Of a stretch of 64,000 bases of DNA, positions 26,949-64,000 are shown piece by piece. The stretch's first letter is position 1. Each line of letters begins with the position of its first letter. Location of the stretch: positions 2,071,405 through 2,135,404 of the forward strand of contig MU057640.1 in NCBI GenBank assembly GCA_013265495.1, in the 5' to 3' direction. The position numbers were made by a program, and so were the translations under genes. Below the pieces are notes generated by a model. That model ran no database searches, was not told the origin of the DNA, and saw only the letters and a list, made by a program, of their open reading frames with translations. This stretch comes from Vicugna vicugna (lineage: Eukaryota).

Positions 26949-27000
<52 letters not shown>
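26946..27000. repeat. Compound trinucleotide microsatellite (TGA)n(TGG)n
   Basis: Seen directly. Confidence 0.95.
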
Positions 27001-43900: not shown

Positions 43901-45124
43901 TGGTTATATGAGCCTCTGTCCACCCTCTCTTAAAGGATGGAGTGAGAATTCAAGTGCCCAATGTGGATTGTTTAGTTTGCTCCTCCCCCAAATCCTATGG
44001 GGTATTCTTTTTATCTTCATCTTACAGAAGAAGAACCTGAGGCTTAGAGAAGCTGAGTCACCTCTCCAGGGTCACGCACAATTCAAGTCCGTATTTGTTT
44101 GGACTCAGCACCAGCACCCTTCACCATGACGACGTCCTGCACAGGTATGTGGCTGTGGCTCAGCCGGTGCTAATCTCCTTCTCCGATCACGAGTCACCCA
44201 GCGTGTGACCCTTGTGGCCTGCCTGCCCCACTTCTGTTGGGAGCCTGTCCCTCCCACCGGGACCTGGCATCTCGGAAGCCTCCCCTGTCCTTGGGAGGCA
44301 GCAGAGTGTATGTAGCCATGAGATGGTAGGTTTGTTCATTGGGAGACCTTGGTTCTGGCCCCTCCTTTGCCACTAACTTCCTGTGTGACCTTGGGCAATC
44401 ACGTCCCCTCCCAAGTCCCCGGATTCTACAGGTTTGATGAGGTCTCTCCGAGCTCTAACAGCCCCCAGGAGCGTGGGAGGACACCACAGGATGTGTGGTG
44501 TGTGACTCTTCATGGAGGATCCTGCCCACAGGCGGGCGTGGCCTTCATCCCATTCTCTTCAATAATACGGTCTGTCCTGTTTTGACAACTGCTGGCCTTT
44601 CCCCCTCACACCTCTTGAGCTTGAATTTCTGGCTCCTGGGTTTGAGTGGGAGGAAGGAGGAAGTGACATATCCAGTGATTTTCTAAGCACTTCTCTGTGG
44701 GTGAGACCAAGGGAAAGAAAAGGAAGGTTTGGAAGCCTGTCCCACCCACAGTCACTGCCTGGGACAGAGTCACTGCGGGACATGGCCTTCCCTCGGGGGG
44801 CTGACGGCAGGATATGCCCAGCCCCCTGCAGGCCCCGCAGAAGAGCTTGTAGACTGCTCGCGCAAGACTGCATCCACCCAACAGCTCCTTTCCGGTTTCC
44901 CACCACACCTCCTGCCAAAAGAAGCCCCAGGATCCCTGTCTCTGCCAACCCTAAAATGTCTCCTTTAGTTCCAGGTTCTAAACTGGGATTTCTTTCCCCT
45001 CCTTGTGAAATGGAGGTGAGATGGAGGTTGATAAAGCTGAGCTAGCCAGTGGCTTGGGATGCTTTCCTCACTTCATCCACTCATTCATTCATTCATTCAA
45101 TATTTAGGGATTCAAAGAGGAAAT

Positions 45125-45525
45125 TAGTCAGGCCCTGGCAAACTTCAGTTTGGCAACTGGTAATTTGAGGAGAGCTAATTAAAGAGACTTCAAAAGTGGA
45201 CAGAGTGTAGGAAAACAAAGGATGGTGTAGTACCCTGGAGCTAGTACCATCAGGAAGATATTATCAACCCTAGGCTGAAGGCATAAAAGGAGAGAAAATT
45301 CCCAGAAGGAGGGAGCCACGTGGAGAGGGCCCCCTGGCAGGAGCTGTCTGTGACCTTTGGTTGAAGGACTCATCTAGCTGGTGCAATGAAAACCTTGACC
45401 TCCCTCACTTCCTTCTGTTGGCTGATCCCCGTTGATGGAGTTGGGATGAGTCAGCCTCTTGGGGCTCCCAGCAGGGCAGAGAAGAGCAGAGTGGGGATTT
45501 GGAAGCACAAAGACTCCCTGCACAG
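45125..45525. mobile_element. ERVL LTR (LTR33/LTR41-like) within L2 remnants
   Basis: 'gtagtaccctggagctagtacc...accctaggctgaaggc' and 'cttctgttggctgatccc' motifs. Confidence 0.5.
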
Positions 45526-45529
45526 AAAT

Positions 45530-46930
45530 CAGACACAGCCTCTGTCCTCAAGGAGCTTGCGTATGAGAAGGGGAAACAGAAGTGCCAAAGTAATTTACAG
45601 TGTGATAAATGCTTTAGTAAAGACATGAACAAAGGACAAGAGGATCCCAGGGTTAGGAAATGAAATCTGCCAGGAAGGGTGTTAATGTGTGTGAAGGTTG
45701 GAGGAGGCTGGTTCCTGGAAAGGGGATGCAGAGGAGTTGCTTCTCAAGTGATGAGCAAGCTTCTTGGAGGAAGTAAGGTCTGAACGGAGACCTGAAATAT
45801 GAATAAGAATTAGCCAGAGAAGGAGAGAAAGAAAAGGAGTCCAGGCAGCGTGAAAAATATGCATAAAAGCTGGAGGCAGAAGGAGAGTGAAGTGCTCTTT
45901 GGGAAACTGTAAGTAATGTAATATGATAATGTAATGCGATAAAGTCATGTAACATAAGAGTATCGAGGGGGATGGTTGAGTGATGAAGCTGAATAGAGAA
46001 GCGCCCAGAGCATGAAGATTCCTTTTGCCAGACTAAGGAATTTGGGATTTTGTCTAAGGCCAGTGTTAAGTCCCTAACAGTTCTTAATCAGGGGAGTGAT
46101 ACATTATATTTATGTTTTAGAAAATTGCTTTGGTTGAAGAGGAGAGAGTGGATTAAAGGCAGAGAGATTGGAAAGAAGGTTGTTTTTGTAATTTAAGTGG
46201 GAGATGACAGTGGCCCAAAGTAGATGAAATAAGAAGTATTAAGAAGGTAAAACTTAGGGGGGAGGGTATAGCTCAGTGGTAGAGTGCATGCTTAGCATGC
46301 ACGAAGTGCTGGGTTCAATCCCCAGTACCTCTAATTAATTAAACAAACCCAGTTACCTCCCTCCCTGAGAAATAAACAAATAATAAAAAAAAAAAGGTAA
46401 AACTTGGTGGGATTTATGGATTGGATGTAAGAGGGAGGGAGAGTTTAGTCCTGAGGAGATGGTGATACAGTTCACCAAGATAAGGATCTTTGGAGAAGGA
46501 AGGACATGTGTGTGTGTGTGTGTGTGTGTTGGGGAAGATAGTATATCATGGTGAAGAAGATAGAGGGATTGATAAATAATCCAGTTTGGGGCATTCGAGG
46601 TGATGGCACCAGTAGGATGGCCAAATAGAACTTGGTGCTTTGAATGAGTTGTTCAGAAGAGATCTTGGTGGAAGCTATGGATCTGAGGAACTTCAGGATG
46701 CAAAGGATGATTGCAGTGGTGGAGTTCATGCGATCACCATGGACAGAGCTTAGCGTTAGGAGGAAAAAACACCAATGAACAGAGGGTAATAGACGTAGAG
46801 GAACTCACAAAGGAGATGAGGAAGGAGAACTAGGGGAGAGTGGGATCATGGAAGTCAAAGAGAATATTGAGTTCTAAGAGGAGGTAAGTGGAGAATTAAG
46901 TATGTTGACCATCACTGAGAGGTCCTGGGC
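45530..46930 (-). mobile_element. Degraded L2 LINE
   Basis: Purine-rich antisense L2 motifs ('gccagactaaggaatttgggattttgtctaaggc', 'caggggagtgatacatt...gttttagaaaa'). Confidence 0.6.
46256..46393 (+). mobile_element. Full-length tRNA-derived SINE (vic-1-like) with 12-bp TSD
   Basis: A box TAGCTCAGTGG, B box GGTTCAATCCC, A tail; AAGGTAAAACTT at 46244-46255 and 46394-46405. Confidence 0.92.
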
Positions 46931-47022
46931 ACAGGAGATAGTTAACAGTATGGTTGTTCTTTCTCCACCCGTGTCTTTCAATCAGATAGATAAGAAATAT
47001 TTCCTGAGCATCTATGGTATAG

Positions 47023-47388
47023 TCGTTATGGCTGAATTGTGTCCCTCCCCAAAGCTATGTTAGGGCCCTAACCCCTAGTACCTGAGAATAGGACTGTGTT
47101 TGGAGATAGGGCTTTTTAAGAGGTAATTCAGGTGGAATGAGGTCATATGGGTGGGCTCTAATTCAATAGGACTGATGTCCTTACAAGAAGAGGAGATTAA
47201 GACACAGACAGGCACAGAGAGAAGACCATGTGAGGATGAGAAGATGGCCGAGGCCTCCAGAAGAAACCAACCATGCCTATGCCTTCCTGTCCAATATCTA
47301 ACCTCCAGAACTATAAGAAAATCAATTTCTGTTGTTGAAGGCATCCAGTCTGTGGTCCTTGGTTATGGCAGCCCTAGAAAATTAATGT
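47023..47388 (+). mobile_element. MLT1A/B-like MaLR LTR
   Basis: 'gttatggctgaattgtgtccctcc...tttggagatagggc...ggttatggcagccctagaaaattaat'. Confidence 0.85.
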
Positions 47389-47809
47389 GGTGCTTTACAT
47401 AGGGATTAGAAAAAGCAAACAGCATGGACTAGGGCTCTCAAAGAACTTACGACTCTCTGAGGAAGAGAAGAAGCACATGGACTGGTAACTGGCCCTTCCA
47501 GCCAGTATGACTCAGGCGTGGGTAATCAGGTTGTGACTCAAACCTGCTGGAGTTTAGAGAAGCCAGCACTTGCTCTGGGTGGGGAAATCTGGGGTGGTTT
47601 CAAGGAGGAGGTGGGATTGAGCTCAGCCTTGAAGTGCGTGCAGGACTGAGGTTGGCAGGAAAAGGGGAAGGGAAGCCCCTGTGGGAGGATGGAGCTCACA
47701 AAGGGGTGGAGAGGAGGAAGTGGGAGGGAGATAGTGAGTAGTTCAGGCTGGCTGCAGGGGCAGCTCTTCCACTAGAATTGTGGAGGATGGGGCTCTAGAC
47801 AGAGACTAG

Positions 47810-48285
47810 CATGGCTATAGGTCCTCCTAAGATCTGTTCTTTCATCCACGCTGATCGAAGGTTTAGCCGAGCACATGGCTGCCTGGCCAGACACTTCCTT
47901 TGCCTTTAAGTGTCACCATGTCTAGGTTCTGGCCAGTAGAATGTGAGCAGAAGTGATGTGGCCAACCTCCCAATTGTATAATTGTCTAAAATAAGGAAAG
48001 AAGTGTATCCTCCCCTTTCACCCTTCTTTCCTTATCCCTGGCTGGATGTGCAGACACGTGGTGGTGGGAGTTGGAACAGCCATCTAAAACCACAAGATGG
48101 AAGCCTCGTGCTGAGAGTGGCAGGAGTAACAGAATAGACAGAGCCTGGATGCTGATGACACGTGGCCACTGTATCAGGCCTGGACTGCTCTTACTTGGGC
48201 TGTTATTTGAGAGAGAAATGCCTATGTTGTTTAATCCATTATTTTGTCTCTTATAGTAACAGACAAATGGATAGCTAACTAACAC
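47810..48285 (+). mobile_element. MLT1J/I-like MaLR LTR
   Basis: 'ggttctggccagtagaatgtgagcagaagtgatgtg' ... 'ctaactaacaca'. Confidence 0.65.
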
Positions 48286-53181: not shown

Positions 53182-53353
53182 CGTGGGGAGGGTATAGCTA
53201 AAGTGGTAGAGCGCATGCTTAGCATGCATGAGGTCCTAGGTTCAATCCCCAGCACCTCCTCTAAAAATAAATAAACCTAATAACCTACCCCCCACCTCAA
53301 TAAAATAATTCAGTAACACAATAATACATAAATTAATTAATTTAAAATAATAA
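53182..53353 (+). mobile_element. Full-length tRNA-derived SINE (vic-1-like) with 14-bp TSD
   Basis: TAAATGGAACTTCT at 53168-53181 and 53354-53367; tRNA head plus AT-rich tail. Confidence 0.92.
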
Positions 53354-55462: not shown

Positions 55463-56019
55463 CAAGACATGGAAGAACCCTAAATGTCCATTGACAAATG
55501 ACTAGATAAAGAAGATGTGGTCTAGAATATGCAATGGAATACTACTCAGCTATAAAAAAGAATGAAATAATGCCATTTGCAGCAACATGGATGGATCTAG
55601 AGATTATTATACTAAGTGAAGTAAATCAGACAGAGAAATACAAATTTCATATGATATCACTTATATGTGGAATCTTAAAAAATGATACAAATGAGCTTAT
55701 GAACAATCTGGAAATAGCCTCACAGACATAGAAAACAAACTATGGTTACCAAAGTGGTAAGGGGTTGAGGGGGTGGGAAAAATTAGGAGTTTGGGGTTAG
55801 CAGCAGATACAAGCTACTATATATAAAATAAACAACAAGAATCTACTGTGTAGCACAGGAATCTATATTCAGTATCTTGTAATAACCTATAATGGAAAAG
55901 AATCTGAAAAAGAATATATATATGTACGTATTTATAACTGAATCCCTTTGCTGTACACCTGAAACTAACACAACAGTGTATGATCAACTATTCAATTAAA
56001 AAAAGGAAAAAAAAAAAAA
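55463..56019 (+). mobile_element. L1 3' end (ORF2 C-terminus, 3'UTR, polyA) with 18-bp TSD
   Basis: [51 protein letters not shown] at 55445-55462 and 56020-56037. Confidence 0.93.
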
Positions 56020-56999
56020 AGAAATGTGTGGGCTTTGGAGCTCCTGCTTCATCCTTCTGGGGCTACGTGGCATTGGGCACATTACTTAGCTTCTCTGAGT
56101 CAAGCCCCTTTAGTTACAAATAATTGAAAGCCACTCAGTTTATCTTAATCAAGATGGAGTACTTAATTGGAAGACTAAGAGAGATTCTCAGAAAAGCTGG
56201 GAGCCATTGGAAGAGCCTCTGTGGACCGTGGCATGGCCTCTTCCTTCCTCTTCCTTCTTCTCCAGAGTTGCGAAGTTCTCTGCTCCTATGTTGCCCAACA
56301 CATCTGATTCTTTCTTCTTCCTCGACTGGCCTCCGTGGTACACATGACCACACACTGATGTTCCAGTCCCACCTTCATGAAGGGCTGTACAGTGAGGACA
56401 AATGTCTCTATGTCCAAATCTACATTTCTGGGGAAAAGAAACTGACTCTGCCCTTCTGGGATCGAGTTTCCATCTCAGCCTGAAGAACGGGTTCATGCTG
56501 GGTACCAACATGCCAGCAAGGACCCACCTGTGTGGGTAGGTGGCAGGTTCTCAGAGAAGAGAAAAAAAGTGAAAATCACCCAGTTGGGTGTTCAGTGCCG
56601 TCCCTAAGCTTTGGTGTTCTCATGTGGAAGCGGGAATGATGTTACTGACCTTGAGGTATTAAGAGAAATACTGTTTGTAAAGTGCTTATCGTTGTGGCTG
56701 ATACACAGTCCATGCTGCCTCTTGGGGAACAGTCGCTCCTGTTCAAGATGAGGTTCACTGGACTTAGTGGGTGGATCTCTGAGGTGGGATGGACCTGGGT
56801 AGCAAAGGAAGCTCAGAGGGACAGGCTGAAGGGATGGGGTAAGAGGAATGTGACTTTATCCATCACCTGTTGGGGGAGACAGAGTTGTAAACAGAGGGGC
56901 ATGGGGATGCTCAAATGTTGTTATTTCAGGAGAACTGACTCCTAATTCCCAGCTGGAGGGCAGAGCAGTGCCACCATGTTATGGACACTCAAACCATCC

Positions 57000-57984: not shown

Positions 57985-58072
57985 CGGGAGTACCATTCCG
58001 CAGTACCTCTGTTAAAAAATAAATTAATGAGTAAATAAAACCTAACTCCCTCCCCCGCCAAGACAAACAAAA
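57985..58072 (+). mobile_element. 5'-truncated vic-1-like SINE
   Basis: 'cagtacctctgttaaaaaataaattaat...aacctaactccctccccc' matches the 3' half of the 46256 and 53182 copies. Confidence 0.6.
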
Positions 58073-59203
58073 GTACCAAACTCAGCCTCCAAAGGAAATG
58101 GGATTTGAGTCCCAGCCCCGTCATCTTGGGCCTCAGTTTCTTTATAAAGGGTTCAATTAGATAGGCTCCTTTTGAGCTCTGAAGGCCTGTGAAGTTTATG
58201 TAATAAAAGCATTTTGTTATCTGAGCTACTTACTTCTCTGCCTTTGGCTTCTTCAGAGTCCTCATTCTTTTAAGATTAGCCTCCCACCCATCAGGAGAGC
58301 TAGGTGGATGACATTTTGCTTGATGACAGAGAGGGTGCCTTCAAGCTAGACTACCAGGCTAAGGCTTGGAAAGCTCATCGCCCTCCTATCCACAAGCCTC
58401 ACTTGGCAGTTGGAGCGGAAGATGCTCATCTTTGAGGCAAGAAGGCGTGAGTCAGCAGGAAGGAGGGGCGGGGGAAGGTGACGCCTATGGAGTTTAGTTT
58501 CCTTGTTCCCAGTTGTCTTTATTCTCAGGTTTCTTGTGAGCTATCTTTCAGAAAGCAAAGGAACCTTCTCCATCAGCCCGAGGGCTGATGACAAGGCATG
58601 GAGTTGTGGAGAAGTGGCCCATCATTTCTTGGGTGTCACCAGGTCACCCTTCCCTCACTAGTTCTGTTTGGGGTCATCAGTCTGGTAGGAAGGACTGTAG
58701 AGAAAAAATTTGAGCTCCCCTAGCTTTGGACAGGAGGACACTCTGTTTCCTGGTGACACAGCCTGCCAGCTGTCTTGAAGCCAGCTTGGGAGCTATTCCT
58801 TCAAGCCAATGATGTGAAAGCCCAAATTCTCCCTCAGATCTTCCTTAACTGGTCACCATCACCCTTAAGTCTATGTTTCCTAAATGACCCTTAAATGAAT
58901 GACACGTTTGCTGGTTATTCTGTATGGGGTTATCGGAGGAGTAGTCATATATACAAGCCCCTAGATTAACACCAAATCTTCGCTCACATCCTGCCCAAGG
59001 ACAGCCAGGTAGTCTGGGGCCTCAACGAGCTCCATCATCACCCCAGATCAGCAGGAAGTAGAGCGGTTGCTCAATGTCCCCAAGATTTGGGGTCTGATGA
59101 CTAGAAGGGAGAATCTCAGGTAGCTTAGATAGAAATGAACATTGGGCAAAGGGAGAGAAAGGGGAAAGGAAAAATCCAGAACACAAGAAACCTGAGCTGT
59201 CAA

Positions 59204-59581
59204 CTATTTACAATAGCCAAGAAATGGAAACAGCCTAAATGTCCATCAGCTGATGACTGGATAAAGAAGATGTGGTATATTTATACAATGGAATACTACT
59301 CAGCCATAAAAACCGACAACATAACACCATTTGCAGCAACATGGATGCACCTGGAGAATGTCATTCTAAGTGAAGTGAGCCAGAAAGAGAAAGAAAAATA
59401 CCATATGAGATCACTCATATGTGGAATCTAAAAAAAAAAAAAAAAAAACCAAAAAGAAAGCATACAAAGAGAAAAAAATGTGACAATGAATATATATATG
59501 TTCATGTATAACTGAAAATTTGTGCTCTACACTGGAATTTGGCACAACATTATAAAATGATTATAAATCAATAAAAAAAAA
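59204..59581 (+). mobile_element. Young L1 3' end with 19-bp TSD (1 mismatch)
   Basis: LFTIAKKWKQPKCPS...MEYYSAIK...SLICGI*; AAGAAACCTGAGCT(G/C)TCAA at 59185-59203 and 59582-59600. Confidence 0.93.
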
Positions 59582-59676
59582 AAGAAACCTGAGCTCTCAA
59601 TCACCCAGAGCTAAGGAAAACTGAGTTGTAAATCAAACAATCAATCAGTCAACCAACCAACCAATCAATCAATCAC

Positions 59677-60453
59677 AAGGCCTGGGGGTGGAGGCGCACC
59701 CCATGTCATGTCTCTGAGATGGGGTGCCCCTCCACCCCTAGGCCTGGGGGTGGAGGCCCAGTGCACTTTTGTCATGTGTCTATGTAGCCAGATGCCTCTC
59801 CAACCCCAGGCCTAGGTGTGGCGGCCCCATGCACCCTTATCATGTGTCCATTAGCTGAGATGCCTCTCCACACACATGCCTGGAGGTGAAATTCACCCAT
59901 ATCGTGTGTCTTAAACTGGTGTACATCCATACACAGGTCTGGGAATGGATGTGCCCTCGTGTCACATGTCTGTTATACAAGGGTATACCATTACACAGGT
60001 CTGTGTATGAATACATATATATATATATACACAATATGTGTAGTTATATATATATAAATATAGAATATAATACATATACATATGTAATATGTATATAATA
60101 CATATACATATGTAATATTTATATAATACATGTGTATATCCATACACGTCAGTGTATGAATATATATAGTATATTTATTACATATACTTGTGTCTGTGTA
60201 TGGACATGTATATATAATATGTATATTAAATATGTGTATATATTCACATATAATATATACATATATAGTGGTGTATATCCATACACATGTCATTGTATGG
60301 ATATATATAACATATATATTATATATACACATATCTGTACATGATTTGTATATATTTAATATGTATATCATATAATATATGTGTATATATACATTTAATC
60401 TACATAGATATATAATATGTATATTATATATTTGTATTTCCATACACATGTCA

Positions 60454-60494
<41 letters not shown>

Positions 60495-60675
60495 ATATTA
60501 CATATTATATATACACATGTCTCTGTATGGTTATGTATGTATATAATATGTACATCATATACTATATGCATATATATAGTATAAAATATATGCACATATA
60601 ATACATACATATATAATATGATATATATCCATATAAAATATGGATATTGTATTGGTGTACATCCACCCAGGTCTG
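59677..60675. repeat. Palindromic ~60-68 bp minisatellite grading into TA/GT-rich microsatellite
   Basis: Unit centres (AGGCCT/ATGCCT/AGGTCT) at 59678, 59740, 59808, 59876, 59935, 59997; derived centres near 60148, 60290, 60450, 60636, 60669. Confidence 0.85.
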
Positions 60676-62551
60676 ACTCACTGAGACCTCAGCTCATATT
60701 GGGGACCAATCATCTTTTTTGTTTGTTTGTTTCAGTATAGGTAGAGTTACTTAGAGATCCATCAAGAGGCAAGAGAAAGGCCTTGAGGTGTGGGGGTTAG
60801 GTGCTCAGAGTTGAGTAAAAGTAGGTACACAATCCATAGACAGTGCGTGCTGTGTCCGAAGAGGGAGAGAGAGGGGGCTGCGGCCTTGGAACAGTCTTGG
60901 TGCCTGTGGGCATGTTGTTCACCATGCTAATATGTTACAATGGTTGTATAATGGAGGTCAAGGTCTACTAGAAGTCAAATCTCCCACCATCTTGAGCCTC
61001 AAGGCCTCCTGGGGGTTGACTCTCTTGCCATTCTGGTGTTAATTGCTGTGTTATGCCTTGAGTGGCTGTGCCCTGCCCCCTGCCTATCTCATTCCCCCCT
61101 CAGAGATTTTACTCCCATCGTCTTCTTACAGGGCTGTAGAGGGATGATGGTCCATCTTCTGAAACTACTTCCAGGCTGAGGAGGGGCGTTGACCCTGCCT
61201 ATCAGGGAGTAAAAAACCTCTGAATGCTTAATCTAGGGGCCCCAGGAGCACGACAGCCTTTTGTTTTTGTGTCCAGAGTGCTGAGGGCAGGGGCCATCAT
61301 TTGATGTGGGACTATTATAATCCACTGTTTCCACTGACTTCTGATGAACGTTTTTAAAGATGAAGCACTTTTGTAACAACTTGACAGTCTGTAACAACAA
61401 AAAGGCTTAAAAGGCATGATTAAACATCTGTAATTGATAGAGATTTGTTTTTAATTACTAGAATTATGATTGATTATATTTAACTTAACATATTAAATAA
61501 TCCTAGTTAACTTAATATCTGAGATGTCTCAGGTTTTCTTGAAAGCATCTTAAAGTTAGCTCGGGCTACAAAGAACTTTGTTAGATATTTAAAATCTTGA
61601 TTATGTATGAAACCTTTTTTTTTTCCCCATAGTTTTTTTTTTTTTATGAAACTCTTACTGAAAACATACATCTTACTTTCCCACTGTATACTGAAATACT
61701 ACTTTAGGAGCTTTAATTGCATATATTGTCATTTTAACCCTCAAAAACCGTACATCTCTGGCAAAAACCAAGAAGCAAGCAACTGTGAATTGGCTGTCAT
61801 ATTGCCGTTTCCTGACTGGAAACTTATGTTTTAGGTTTTGTTGTTTTTTTTTTTTTCCTAGGTAGATAAACTTAGATCTGCCCAGCAATTAATGTTTTAA
61901 GATTTTATAAATGACACAGATAGTCAGTGAACTTTTTAACTTAGGTTTAAGTAGCAAAATTTGGAGAGACAATTTTAGGTAGATACTTTCAAAAGAAAAC
62001 TCCTATAGAGTTTACCCCAAATCTCTTATTTTATTTACTTTTTGAAAGTTTTTTTACATTGAGTTACTTTTTTCGTTGACAAATTTGTAACATATAGTAA
62101 AGTTTTGCTTGCCCTCTAGTAAGCCTGGGCACAACCAAAGTATTATACTTAACACTGATGTCTCTAAAGACATGTTTCTATTAATTAAACTAACAAGCTT
62201 AAGCTAGCTTCAATACCAATACCAGTGGTGAATCCTTTTAAGATAACGTGAACCTGAAATTTATTTTGGCCAGTTTTCTCTATGTTTGAGTATTTATATA
62301 AGTACTTAACTTCCTTTCAGCCGATTAAAGAGCTCCTTTACCACTTAATCATGCCAATACCATACATCTATGACATACAAACCAGACACCTTACAGTTTT
62401 CATTTTAAAATTTTAGTCATGAATCAGATATAACAAAGTAAAACCAAAAGAGGTTGGATTTAAGCTGGGGGTTTTGGCAGATAGAACAAATCAAAGTTGC
62501 CCATCTAGATGGCTAAGCCTTTTTATTAATATTTATGAAAAAGAGATAAAA

Positions 62552-62610
62552 TTTTTTTTACATTTTTTATTGATTCATAATCATTTTACAGTGTTGTGTC
62601 AAATTCCAGT
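62552..62610 (-). mobile_element. 59-bp young L1 3' terminus inserted in the ERV
   Basis: Reverse complement resembles the tail of the 59204 L1; AAAGAGATAAAA at 62540-62551 and 62611-62622. Confidence 0.75.
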
Positions 62611-63199
62611 AAAGAGATAAAAATTTTTACCTGTCCTTCGCAAATTAAGTTCCAAATTATTTATAAACCCCCCCCACTTTTTTTTTTTAATTTGCATTTT
62701 TCAAAGATGGTGAGATCAGAGTTCCTGGAGAAGACAAGGTAGAATATTTGTATCTCCAAGGCATAGGAAAGCAAGTTTCTCCTAGAAAGACTGTTCTTTA
62801 AAGGCCAGAAAAAACTCTCTTTAAATACTTGTCTAGTAAGATAAATACATAGGGGAGGTTTGGGGTGTGGTAGAAGGATTGCTGGGCTTTGTATCCTTTT
62901 TGGAGCCACACCTCTGGTCCTGTAAAGACTAAATTTGTAAAACAAAGACAGCTTAGTTTTGGTTTTCCTCATTTAGCTTAGGGAAGACTTTTCCAAAAAA
63001 TTTTTATTAGGCTCCAAATATTAGCTATGGTCAGTTTAGTCCAACCGACGGCCTCCCATTTGGCCATCTATTTACAAACACATTTGAGGAGCCTTCCTGG
63101 GTTTGAGAAGTTTTTTGATTAAGGCTCTTGGTTTGGCCTTAATCTGAAGAGCCTTGCCTGTAGCCTCACATGGTCCCATTTCTGATGATAAGCTGACAA

Positions 63200-64000
63200 T
63201 AGTAGCTCTGGCAGGGACCCCAGTTTCCCAGGCAGCAGGGTTGACTTGAGAATCAATATGGGGTGGAAGGGAGAGCTCTTCTGGCTTGGGACTGAGGCAG
63301 GCCCTCAAAGCCAAGAGTAGACATTCTGGGGGGTGCATGTCTTTCCTGTAAGGGTCTTTGAATTGGATTACTTCTTGGGATTTACTGAGCAAGTAGGTCC
63401 CTTCCCAATGAGGGGACGGGGCACTCAGCCACCAGCAAAAACTCCTGTGTAAAAGTCAATTTTTAGTAAGCACCTTGTTTGGGGTCTTCTATTGATCCCC
63501 GTTATTACACAGGATTGAGAGGACAAGGGTCCAGGGAAATCAGTCAGCACAGAGCAGGTGACTCCCTTATCTAATAAGACAACTTTTCTCCCTGCCACGT
63601 CAAGGGTTCCCCAAGGCTCTGCTGGAGAAATGACCCGGTGTCCTGTGGGAGCCAGGGACGGTCCCGGGCCCCGTCAGTCTTTAGTCATCTCAGCTGTCAT
63701 TGGTTTGGGAGCCCCAAGCCCCCTTCAGGACTGGGGGCAGTCCTGCTTCCAGTGGCCTTTTTGTTTGCATATAGGGCAGGGTCCTGGTGGACTTTTCCTG
63801 TACATGGGGCATTTTTTTTTTCAGTGGCCCTCCTGGCTGTACTTAAAACAGGTTCCTTTTTGGCGTGACAGTGGCTCTGATGCAGGCATCCTGGATCCTG
63901 TCCTCGCCATGGGTCTTGGTGGAGGAAAACTCTGAGGTGGTGCGGAGATGTAGGCTGTCGCTAAGAATTGTGCCTTTTGCTGTTGTCCCTGAACACTTTT
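63200..64000 (-). pseudogene. Degenerate retroviral gag (NC) - pro - start of pol
   Basis: Manual translation: CFKYSQEGH*KKKC (63850-63809), [14 protein letters not shown] (63778-63737), KD*RGPG, EPWGTLDVAGRKVVLLDKGVTCSVL, EFLLVAECPVPSLGRDLL, QVNPAAWETGVPARA; contains stops and frameshifts. Confidence 0.88.

Follow-up and report, generated by a model that had tools for sequence, protein, structure and literature searches.

Tandem repeats are found in the U3 of ERV LTRs and have given LTR-derived minisatellites, as in PERV, MLV, ERV9 and the mouse MaLR-derived repeats, and the number of units varies among the copies of one LTR family, as it does here. The human Y minisatellite MSY1, as described in the available part of its report (PMC2599865), is AT-rich (75% A+T) and highly variable, and consists of many near-identical 25-base units of constant length with a predicted hairpin and with variant units in ordered blocks. 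According to the accessible sections of three reports, template switching gives compensatory changes without selection (PMC5453318; PMC8794818) and acts in VNTRs with AT, GT and AC runs, the latter two paired (10.1101/2021.11.26.470150); such mutations appear as linked changes that make two arms reverse complements, and they are identified either by comparing two alleles or from a rooted history. A two-base periodic AT-rich patterning beside CA/TG seeds has been described as convergence around (AC)n, a statistical effect over 25–50 bases in thousands of loci (PMC509290, available part). Flex1 of FRA16D, in the available excerpts of PMC12972899 and PMC11797062, is TA-rich, self-complementary and hairpin-capable, and has an (AT)34 tract.

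Here, we describe an array, located in a window of 64,000 nucleotides (the whole stretch of DNA that was analyzed), that resembles each of these systems in part. With MSY1 it shares the AT-rich composition, the predicted hairpin unit and the block order of unit types. Unlike MSY1, it has about 10 units of 33 to 189 bases with cores 38–88% alike, starts at 60% GC, lies inside an LTR-like repeat and gives no sign of high variability within the compared stretch, the TA block lying outside that stretch. Linked changes between arms are present as in template-switch mutations, but the comparison is between paralogous units rather than a before/after allele pair, the best arm has 8 bases of only three kinds, and a composition shift occurs in addition. 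The two-base periodic patterning extends over 640 bases, much of it spread by tandem duplication. In contrast to the long uninterrupted tract of a cruciform-prone (TA)n fragile repeat such as Flex1, no pure run here exceeds (TA)9 and no perfect arm exceeds 12 bases. A partial literature search, covering few subscription papers, did not turn up any description of an LTR array of palindromic units that passes into a TA block. A link between meiotic hotspots and TA-rich insertions was also considered but not found: the accessible text of PMC7615360 contains neither "AT-rich" nor "TATA" and gives only an about 2-fold bias of tandem-repeat insertions at hotspots, and a literature search on this link yielded a single paper, on plants and unrelated.

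TA-rich low-complexity tracts are common in mammal genomes, usually without a traceable ancestor; in this window, the units lead back step by step from a 640-base tract at 19% GC to a palindromic repeat of 60% GC, and earlier unit types survive in other copies of the element. The matched arm changes are for the most part few and old, and other copies appear to have them too, so that the array looks like a well-preserved, non-functional example of known repeat decay and not like a new process: the mechanisms are known, and the record is unusually legible.

Judging from its surroundings, the array appears to sit in a terminal repeat left by an ancient retrovirus in mammalian DNA (Table 1). We take the purine run and the element from about 59114 to be an LTR, going by our general picture of ERV1 anatomy, and the fragment at 59199–59581 is presumably L1. 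The host LTR is interrupted by this L1-like piece, and its right side is cut at about 60697 by a second ERV. Among four stop-free stretches of the minus-strand ERV that were scanned, one gave a Pfam zf-CCHC match above the cut-off (63728–63820, E 1.6e-4), and the other three gave no Pfam match. Interspersed copies elsewhere in the genome, as for an ERV1-type LTR, were present among contigs of four runs, and no second copy of the element was found in the 64-kb window (blastn queries 58600–59200, 59584–60010 and 60640–61300). Exact-pattern scans gave 0 matches in viral contigs and 0 in metagenome contigs (two scans). Camelid ERV1 elements are numerous, and many are short and non-autonomous (PMC8605555, available part). 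We also noted that the insertions at 59114–64000 are nested, an L1-like tail and a minus-strand ERV both lying in one plus-strand LTR.

Table 1. Features of the array and its host element (positions in the window).
Feature	Position	Strand	Basis or remark
Purine run like a polypurine tract	59103..59113	+	Sequence; directly 5' of the inferred host-LTR start (~59114)
Host LTR-like element, left part	59114..60696	+	Boundaries inferred; many contigs of other loci 80–95% alike on 59681–60009
L1-like 3' fragment with poly(A) end, inside host LTR	59199..59581	+	14-base direct repeat at 59185 and 59582
(AATC/AACC)n microsatellite in place of the left arm of the first dyad, A0	59631..59675	+	TRF period 4, 11.2 copies; A0 pairs 5/12
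U0: AGGCCT centre, GC right arm, second hairpin B0	59677..59724	+	Inverted repeat 59669–59708 / 59715–59754, 83%
U1 and U2: 68-base GC-type units	59725..59860	+	TRF period 68, 77%; A1 centre 59740, 10/12 paired; A2 centre 59808, 6/12
U3: mixed unit	59861..59916	+	Inner left arm CA-alternating, right arm not; A3 centre 59876, 5/12 paired
U4: AT-shifted type	59917..59980	+	A4 centre 59935, 10/12; outer 8 arm bases all paired, inner columns 2 and 4 unpaired
U5: TA-swollen spacer	59981..60130	+	A5 centre 59997, inner 5 arm bases paired; core 59968–60009
U6, U7, U8: TA-rich tandem copies of 138, 162 and 189 bases	60131..60619	+	TRF period 141, 75%; A dyads 60148, 60286, 60448
U9: hairpin with 9-base outer arms of A7, 5-base centre replacing the 12-base centre	60620..60652	+	Arm comparison
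U10: terminal half-unit; array end	60653..60675	+	Near-copy of U4 start (59918–59941), GC-type inner arm; blastn 88% over 25
Second ERV remnant cutting the host LTR	60697..64000	-	LTR-like part ~60697–61091 (limits inferred), gag zinc knuckle 63728–63820, many stops

The dyad centres from A0 onward lie at 59678, 59740, 59808, 59876, 59935, 59997, 60148, 60286, about 60448, 60635 and 60669, giving spacings of 62, 68, 68, 59, 62, 151, 138, about 161, about 188 and 34. All six motifs quoted in an earlier sequence-only reading of this stretch were present (59729–59756, 59923–59952, 59992–60007, 60274–60305, 60625–60647 and 60657–60675). The units are head-to-tail homologues, as in a minisatellite, according to TRF (periods 68 and 141) and shuffle tests, with the distal units exceeding 100 bases. 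Hairpin B0 (59696–59727) has perfect 9-base arms (59696–59704 and 59719–59727), and each of U6–U8 carries a second motif 46–70 bases past its A dyad. The same reading had described a (GT)n tract in one right arm and TA runs in the spacers, and both were found: (GT)12 at 60454 and (TA)9 at 60477, the longest pure TA run, lie in the A8 right arm as a 24-base insertion relative to the neighboring unit, and the U5 spacer is TA-swollen. Within U5, a 28-base palindromic unit occurs in 3.1 copies at 89% (60046–60131, TRF); this triplication has the design of the large array at a smaller scale and is probably the youngest duplication. At the other end, the (AATC/AACC)n microsatellite abuts the array and may have grown from the A0 left arm.

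The GC-type cores were not directly similar to the TA block: 999 of 1000 shuffles scored as well as the A1 core and 977 of 1000 as well as the A2 core, and whole U1 and the B1 and B4 motifs were likewise at chance level against it. Similarity to the TA block was instead carried by the intermediates, as the score of the A4 core was reached in 0 of 1000 shuffles, that of A5 in 2 and that of A3 in 12. Against U4, the score of U1 was reached in 0 of 1000 shuffles, that of U2 in 26 and that of U3 in 23. U5 was similar to U6, U7 and U8 (1, 0 and 5 of 200 shuffles reaching the scores), and U6–U8 are tandem homologues of one another (0 of 200 shuffles for each pair), with landmarks in the same order; U6 and U7 differ at 17 of 136 aligned columns, and U7 and U8 at 27 of 159. 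All four CC dinucleotides of the TA block lie in one left-arm context (4 versus 0.40; 0 of 500 dinucleotide and 31 of 500 trinucleotide shuffles). The stepwise chain from U1 to U4, from U4/U5 to the TA block and through U6–U8 therefore argues that the TA block is a descendant of host-LTR units by way of U4/U5. Thus, the proposed homology of AT-type and GC-type units was borne out through the A3, A4 and A5 cores and U1–U4, whereas it failed in direct comparison. Core identity to A1 falls along the array (81, 69, 59, 47, 38, 41 and 44%). U9 as a whole unit was not more similar to U6–U8 than shuffles were (47–64 of 200). The second motif of U6–U8 did not fall clearly into the A or B type, its scores being reached by 1–17 of 500 shuffles at best for some pairs and lying at chance level for others. 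The centres of the A dyad and the second (B) motif were seen to converge from U4 onward (59935–60523), which may hint at a half-unit period of about 31–35 bases or at conversion between these motifs.

Contigs of four runs were compared with 59681–60010 at 80% likeness, a stretch that ends before the TA block. In these runs, 18, 19, 22 and 23 contigs were placed, 16, 15, 20 and 20 of which were less than 95% alike, most of them on the A1 unit; contigs of other loci were 10–15% diverged from this copy. Among the contigs listed, one of 137 letters joins 59763 to 59894 cleanly (5 + 13 differences), so that a GC-type unit is followed by a U4-type unit (13 differences in 84) in a copy 130 bases shorter than the present one. 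This is the one clean joint of four, the other three having unknown letters between and giving no proof of fewer units; variation in unit number was observed between loci alone. Again among the contigs listed, a long contig that occurs in two runs matches 59905–59950 with 6 differences in 46; it also seems to match 59749–59782, with unrelated sequence before 59749, and therefore belongs to another locus. Three listed contigs match 59967/59968–60009 with 4–6 differences; all three stop precisely at 60009, an ambiguous observation. When the stretches covered by these contigs were placed on GC-type sequence, the best placements had 23 of 46, 24 of 42 and 50 of 84 mismatches (13, 12 and 39 for placements of any type). 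The contigs are therefore far closer to the U4 and U5 stretches and represent the U4 and U5 types, an assignment made from difference counts rather than from the compensated bases themselves. For one of the U4/U5-type loci, the sequence might come from the partner LTR of this provirus or from a segmental duplication. In two runs, the loose ends that follow 59745 are similar to 60672–60685 (12 of 14 bases by eye), from which it follows that some copies would end after a GC-type half-unit.

These comparisons also bear on whether the array is real. An assembly artefact or a chimera of low-complexity reads is very improbable in our view. The TA block is of low complexity and, among the contigs listed, none spans the whole compared stretch in any run. 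Nevertheless, 20 runs from 8 studies with 4 organism labels contain 0.82–0.95 of 111 sampled words of 59584–60760, an interval of which the TA block occupies 55% by length. Such words do not prove order, and the best-scoring run could be the sample from which the sequence came. The list comprised 24 runs, and the 0.00 share in its four added runs (X21–X24) is no evidence of absence, nor are the uncovered bins of the contig comparison. In addition, one contig is identical over 59687–60010 and runs 25 letters further, and the U6–U8 landmarks keep their order. Misassembly is thus unlikely. The sequence-only reading had proposed that the array records the birth of a repeat from an LTR tandem repeat. 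Its place in a repeated LTR-like element (18–23 contigs per run) and the descent of the TA block from the units of that element stood, whereas "birth" fits poorly with long units 12–17% apart and with one contig identical over 59687–60010. The differences between the long units are about those between paralogs and this copy (10–15%), which points to an old array, even though low-complexity DNA may diverge faster.

The GC content per unit, in array order, is 0.65, 0.60, 0.59, 0.48, 0.47, 0.19, 0.22, 0.18, 0.22 and 0.18, with 0.57 in the terminal half-unit, whereas the 24 arm bases of A1–A8 contain 19, 17, 12, 11, 8, 7, 7 and 10 GC. The arms therefore lose GC gradually while the spacers switch in one step at 60010, where unit length also jumps from 56–68 to 138–189. 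The change from GC-rich to TA-rich was confirmed in this sense (0.60 to about 0.19 per unit), although as a step rather than a smooth slope. In single-strand folding, both halves of the array were more stable than dinucleotide shuffles (GC half, z -4.69, 0 of 100; other half, z -3.12, 0 of 20). The TA block had no general hairpin excess, with 19 axes of at least 10 pairs of 12 observed against 17.4 (122 of 300 shuffles reached this). Perfect 10-base arms numbered 8 against 1.7–3.2 expected (4, 30, 6 and 9 of 500 shuffles for k = 2, 3, 4 and 5), two of the eight coming from the one 28-base triplication, while perfect 8- and 12-base arms were not clearly in excess (42–226 of 500, and 28 of 500 at best).

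Hairpins of this kind might in principle be a source of small RNA of the mir-297/mir-466 kind, since the mouse families in question derive from simple repeats, SINE and LTR (PMC3059204, available part), and Rfam gave weak matches to mir-297 (36.4 bits, E 4e-4), mir-3149 (31.2) and mir-568 (30.2). However, none of the 20 Rfam matches, most of them to microRNA families that resemble simple repeats, came near its gathering score (64–101), the best, mir-297, having 36.4 bits against 90, and the matches reflect composition. The hairpins thus fall below the gathering threshold for mir-297, mir-466 and mir-3149 precursors, and a small-RNA origin seems highly unlikely.

We then consider whether the two arms of the dyads change together. 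In A1–A8, 10, 6, 5, 10, 7, 11, 11 and 7 of 12 columns pair. The earlier statement that successive units keep the dyad therefore does not apply to A2 (6/12), A3 (5/12) or A8 (7/12); only well-paired units had been quoted. Between A1 and A7, 7 of 12 columns changed on both arms with 6 still paired, and no column was broken on one side. Five of the eight C:G columns changed, the identical five on each arm, and all five still pair. The chance of this same-column coincidence is 1/56 if all changes are forced to pair, a figure computed on the best unit after looking, and about 6e-4 with a draw of A/T only. In the seven steps between neighboring units, a change on one arm broke a pair 19 times and restored one 12 times, with 3 further single changes, and both arms changed in 4 compensated and 2 unpaired cases, so that single-arm changes (31, part of which at A5 may be a register shift) outnumber compensated ones (4). 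When arms were paired within their own unit or at random, all eight units together gave 67 pairs against a mean of 57.3 (0.021 of 40320 permutations). No excess was found within the AT types (46 against 45.2, 0.55 of 120 permutations) or within the GC types (21 against 22.0, 0.83 of 6 permutations); pairing is in excess only across types, rather than unit by unit as in an array of co-varying hairpins. A reading centred on B (right arm n with left arm n+1) gave 68 pairs against 67 for the A-centred one, with neither frame preferred. Together, these results indicate that the arms change together between unit types, as in A1 versus A7 and the permutations, and not unit by unit, and that the arm coupling is a difference between unit types reducible to two or three events.

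One event is seen at A4, where columns 5–12 (the outer arm) pair without exception and the right arm departs from A1 at 3 of these columns. In the four-point model, a template switch is called from at least two changes that a single reverse-complement copy of 8 or more bases accounts for, whereas here units of one array are compared. The 8-base right arm of A4 consists of A, T and G only, whereas a filter that we took from the available part of 10.1101/2021.11.26.470150 requires all four bases in the copied piece of a template switch. A second event concerns the inner arm: in A3 and A4, columns 2 and 4 of the left arm are already A, and a matching right arm appears only from A5. The left arm of A4 pairs with the right arm of A5 at 9 of 12 columns, and A6 reads as left A4 plus right A5. 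In A8, the right arm became (GT)12 and the left arm did not change. A9 keeps the 9-base outer arms of A7 with a 5-base centre, and therefore represents loss of the centre rather than new co-variation; its form (60625–60647) is as expected from the loss of a hairpin tip. Template switching would be the simplest cause of the arm coupling.

Arm copying would be unnecessary if strand-symmetric mutation had acted on an inherited palindrome, through CpG decay and through slippage from mirror seeds, CA on the left and TG on the right, that leads to an alternation of purines and pyrimidines. Four of the six compensated columns (2, 4, 10 and 12) are changes that make each arm alternate, and the other two are transitions. 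The 19 breaks and 12 fixes on single arms against 4 compensated double changes between neighbors fit this explanation, as does the conversion of the A8 right arm to (GT)12 beside an unaltered left arm, and periodic AT patterning around (AC)n has been described (PMC509290, available part). The pair 59703:59720 in B0 is A:T here. In other loci, 59720 is C in 4–6 contigs per run and the counterpart of 59703 is G in loose ends, each within a CpG; this compensated pair likely arose by two ordinary CpG transitions, although the contigs with C and those with G may not be the same. However, symmetric mutation leaves the coincidence of the same five of eight columns, at 1/56 even if changes are forced to pair, and in the 47% GC unit of A4, which alternates weakly, 8 columns pair perfectly. 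We thus regard symmetric mutation without copying as unlikely.

The matches to U4 and U5 types at other loci imply that the arm shift probably predates this insertion. It therefore follows that copying or selection during the mobile life of the element is at least as likely as local cruciform repair. In the local version, each new unit would have become more TA-rich than the last as arm-to-arm copying or cruciform repair recurred at this locus, which would have produced a polar gradient. The ordered fall in arm GC (19, 17, 12, 11, 8, 7 and 7 of 24), the drop in core identity with distance from A1 (81 to 44%, lowest 38%), the lag of right arms behind left arms and the lost centre of A9 all agree with such a gradient. 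Against it are the presence of the U4 and U5 types at other loci, the lack of co-variation within types, the GC drop as a step at 60010 in an array that ends in a GC-richer half-unit, and a longest pure TA run of only 9 units; moreover, for MSY1, the authors considered it unlikely that cruciform mismatch repair brings about the change of repeat type (PMC2599865, available part). We consider a gradient built at this locus quite improbable. Accordingly, of the polar gradient with arm-to-arm copying put forward by the sequence-only reading, the coupling of the arms beyond simple chance (1/56; about 6e-4) remains, whereas the local gradient is not supported, as the coupling is at the level of types and U4/U5 types occur elsewhere.

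The presence of the coupled types at other loci also means that they were possibly exposed to selection. Selection in the active retroelement could have kept the dyad during drift, as a DNA or RNA stem or as a site for a U3 palindrome-binding protein, with neutral TA swelling. The GC half folds far better than shuffles, and GGGGGTGGAGG and the AGGCCT motifs look to us like zinc-finger factor sites, which we count in favor of selection as an assumption of our own. A2 and A3, however, are poorly paired, the unit number differs between loci (one clean joint), and a protein would hardly go on binding a site of which 6 of 12 columns have changed. Selection as the keeper of the dyad is accordingly given a low probability.

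The account that we favor, with modest confidence that it is correct, is a history in two stages: a palindromic LTR array already had GC, U4 and U5 types before insertion, and its AT-shifted end was later duplicated and swollen. In the first stage, before insertion, the LTR family would have carried a palindromic minisatellite with units of 56–68 bases delimited by self-complementary AGGCCT-type sites; copies would have differed in unit number, and three or more types would have followed a fixed order (GC type, U4 type and U5 type, then the terminal half-unit). The AT-shifted types would derive from two or three coupled arm changes, affecting the outer arm in A4 and the inner arm in A5, in which one arm changed first and the other was most likely rewritten from it by short-range template switching. 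In the second stage, presumably at this locus, although paralogs may share the TA block, the AT-shifted end would have been tandemly duplicated about four times as units of 140–190 bases, which would have inherited their paired arms (A6 being left A4 plus right A5). TA and GT seeds would then have grown by slippage, small fold-backs would have added local palindromes, and one hairpin (A9) would have lost its centre. Inheritance by duplication would explain why own-unit pairing shows no excess within types, as expected. This history is built on the homology chain, the unit map, the type-level coupling, the unit types at other loci, the duplication of long units and the GT insertion, all of them shown by the comparisons; the order of events is reconstructed from them, with the direction from GC to AT unrooted.

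An extension of this two-stage history would be a self-reinforcing ratchet, in which a CA or TA seed on one arm is mirrored by fold-back copying and the unit then slips, folds and breaks more, so that TA-rich hairpin arrays would grow from the same end in several family copies independently. We hold this to be speculative and rather improbable. If TA growth from the same end proved to have occurred independently in paralogs, arm-copying could be counted directly against symmetric mutation within the family, and if the ratchet were true, the family would be a replicated natural experiment on the origin of mammalian TA-rich low-complexity tracts. At present, a single locus that looks neutral can be accounted for by known processes, with two or three events of coupling.

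Several minor features were observed elsewhere in the window. Pieces of a tRNA-like SINE lie at 53185–53270 and 57985–58060, and an L1-like tail lies at about 55470–56020; we take the SINE-like and L1-like pieces of the window to be camelid from their appearance. A strong skew of G over C occurs at 45001–48000 (0.29, 0.41 and 0.21 per kb), with no tandem repeat called there, and a perfect (TGA)12.7 microsatellite is located at 26949–26986.
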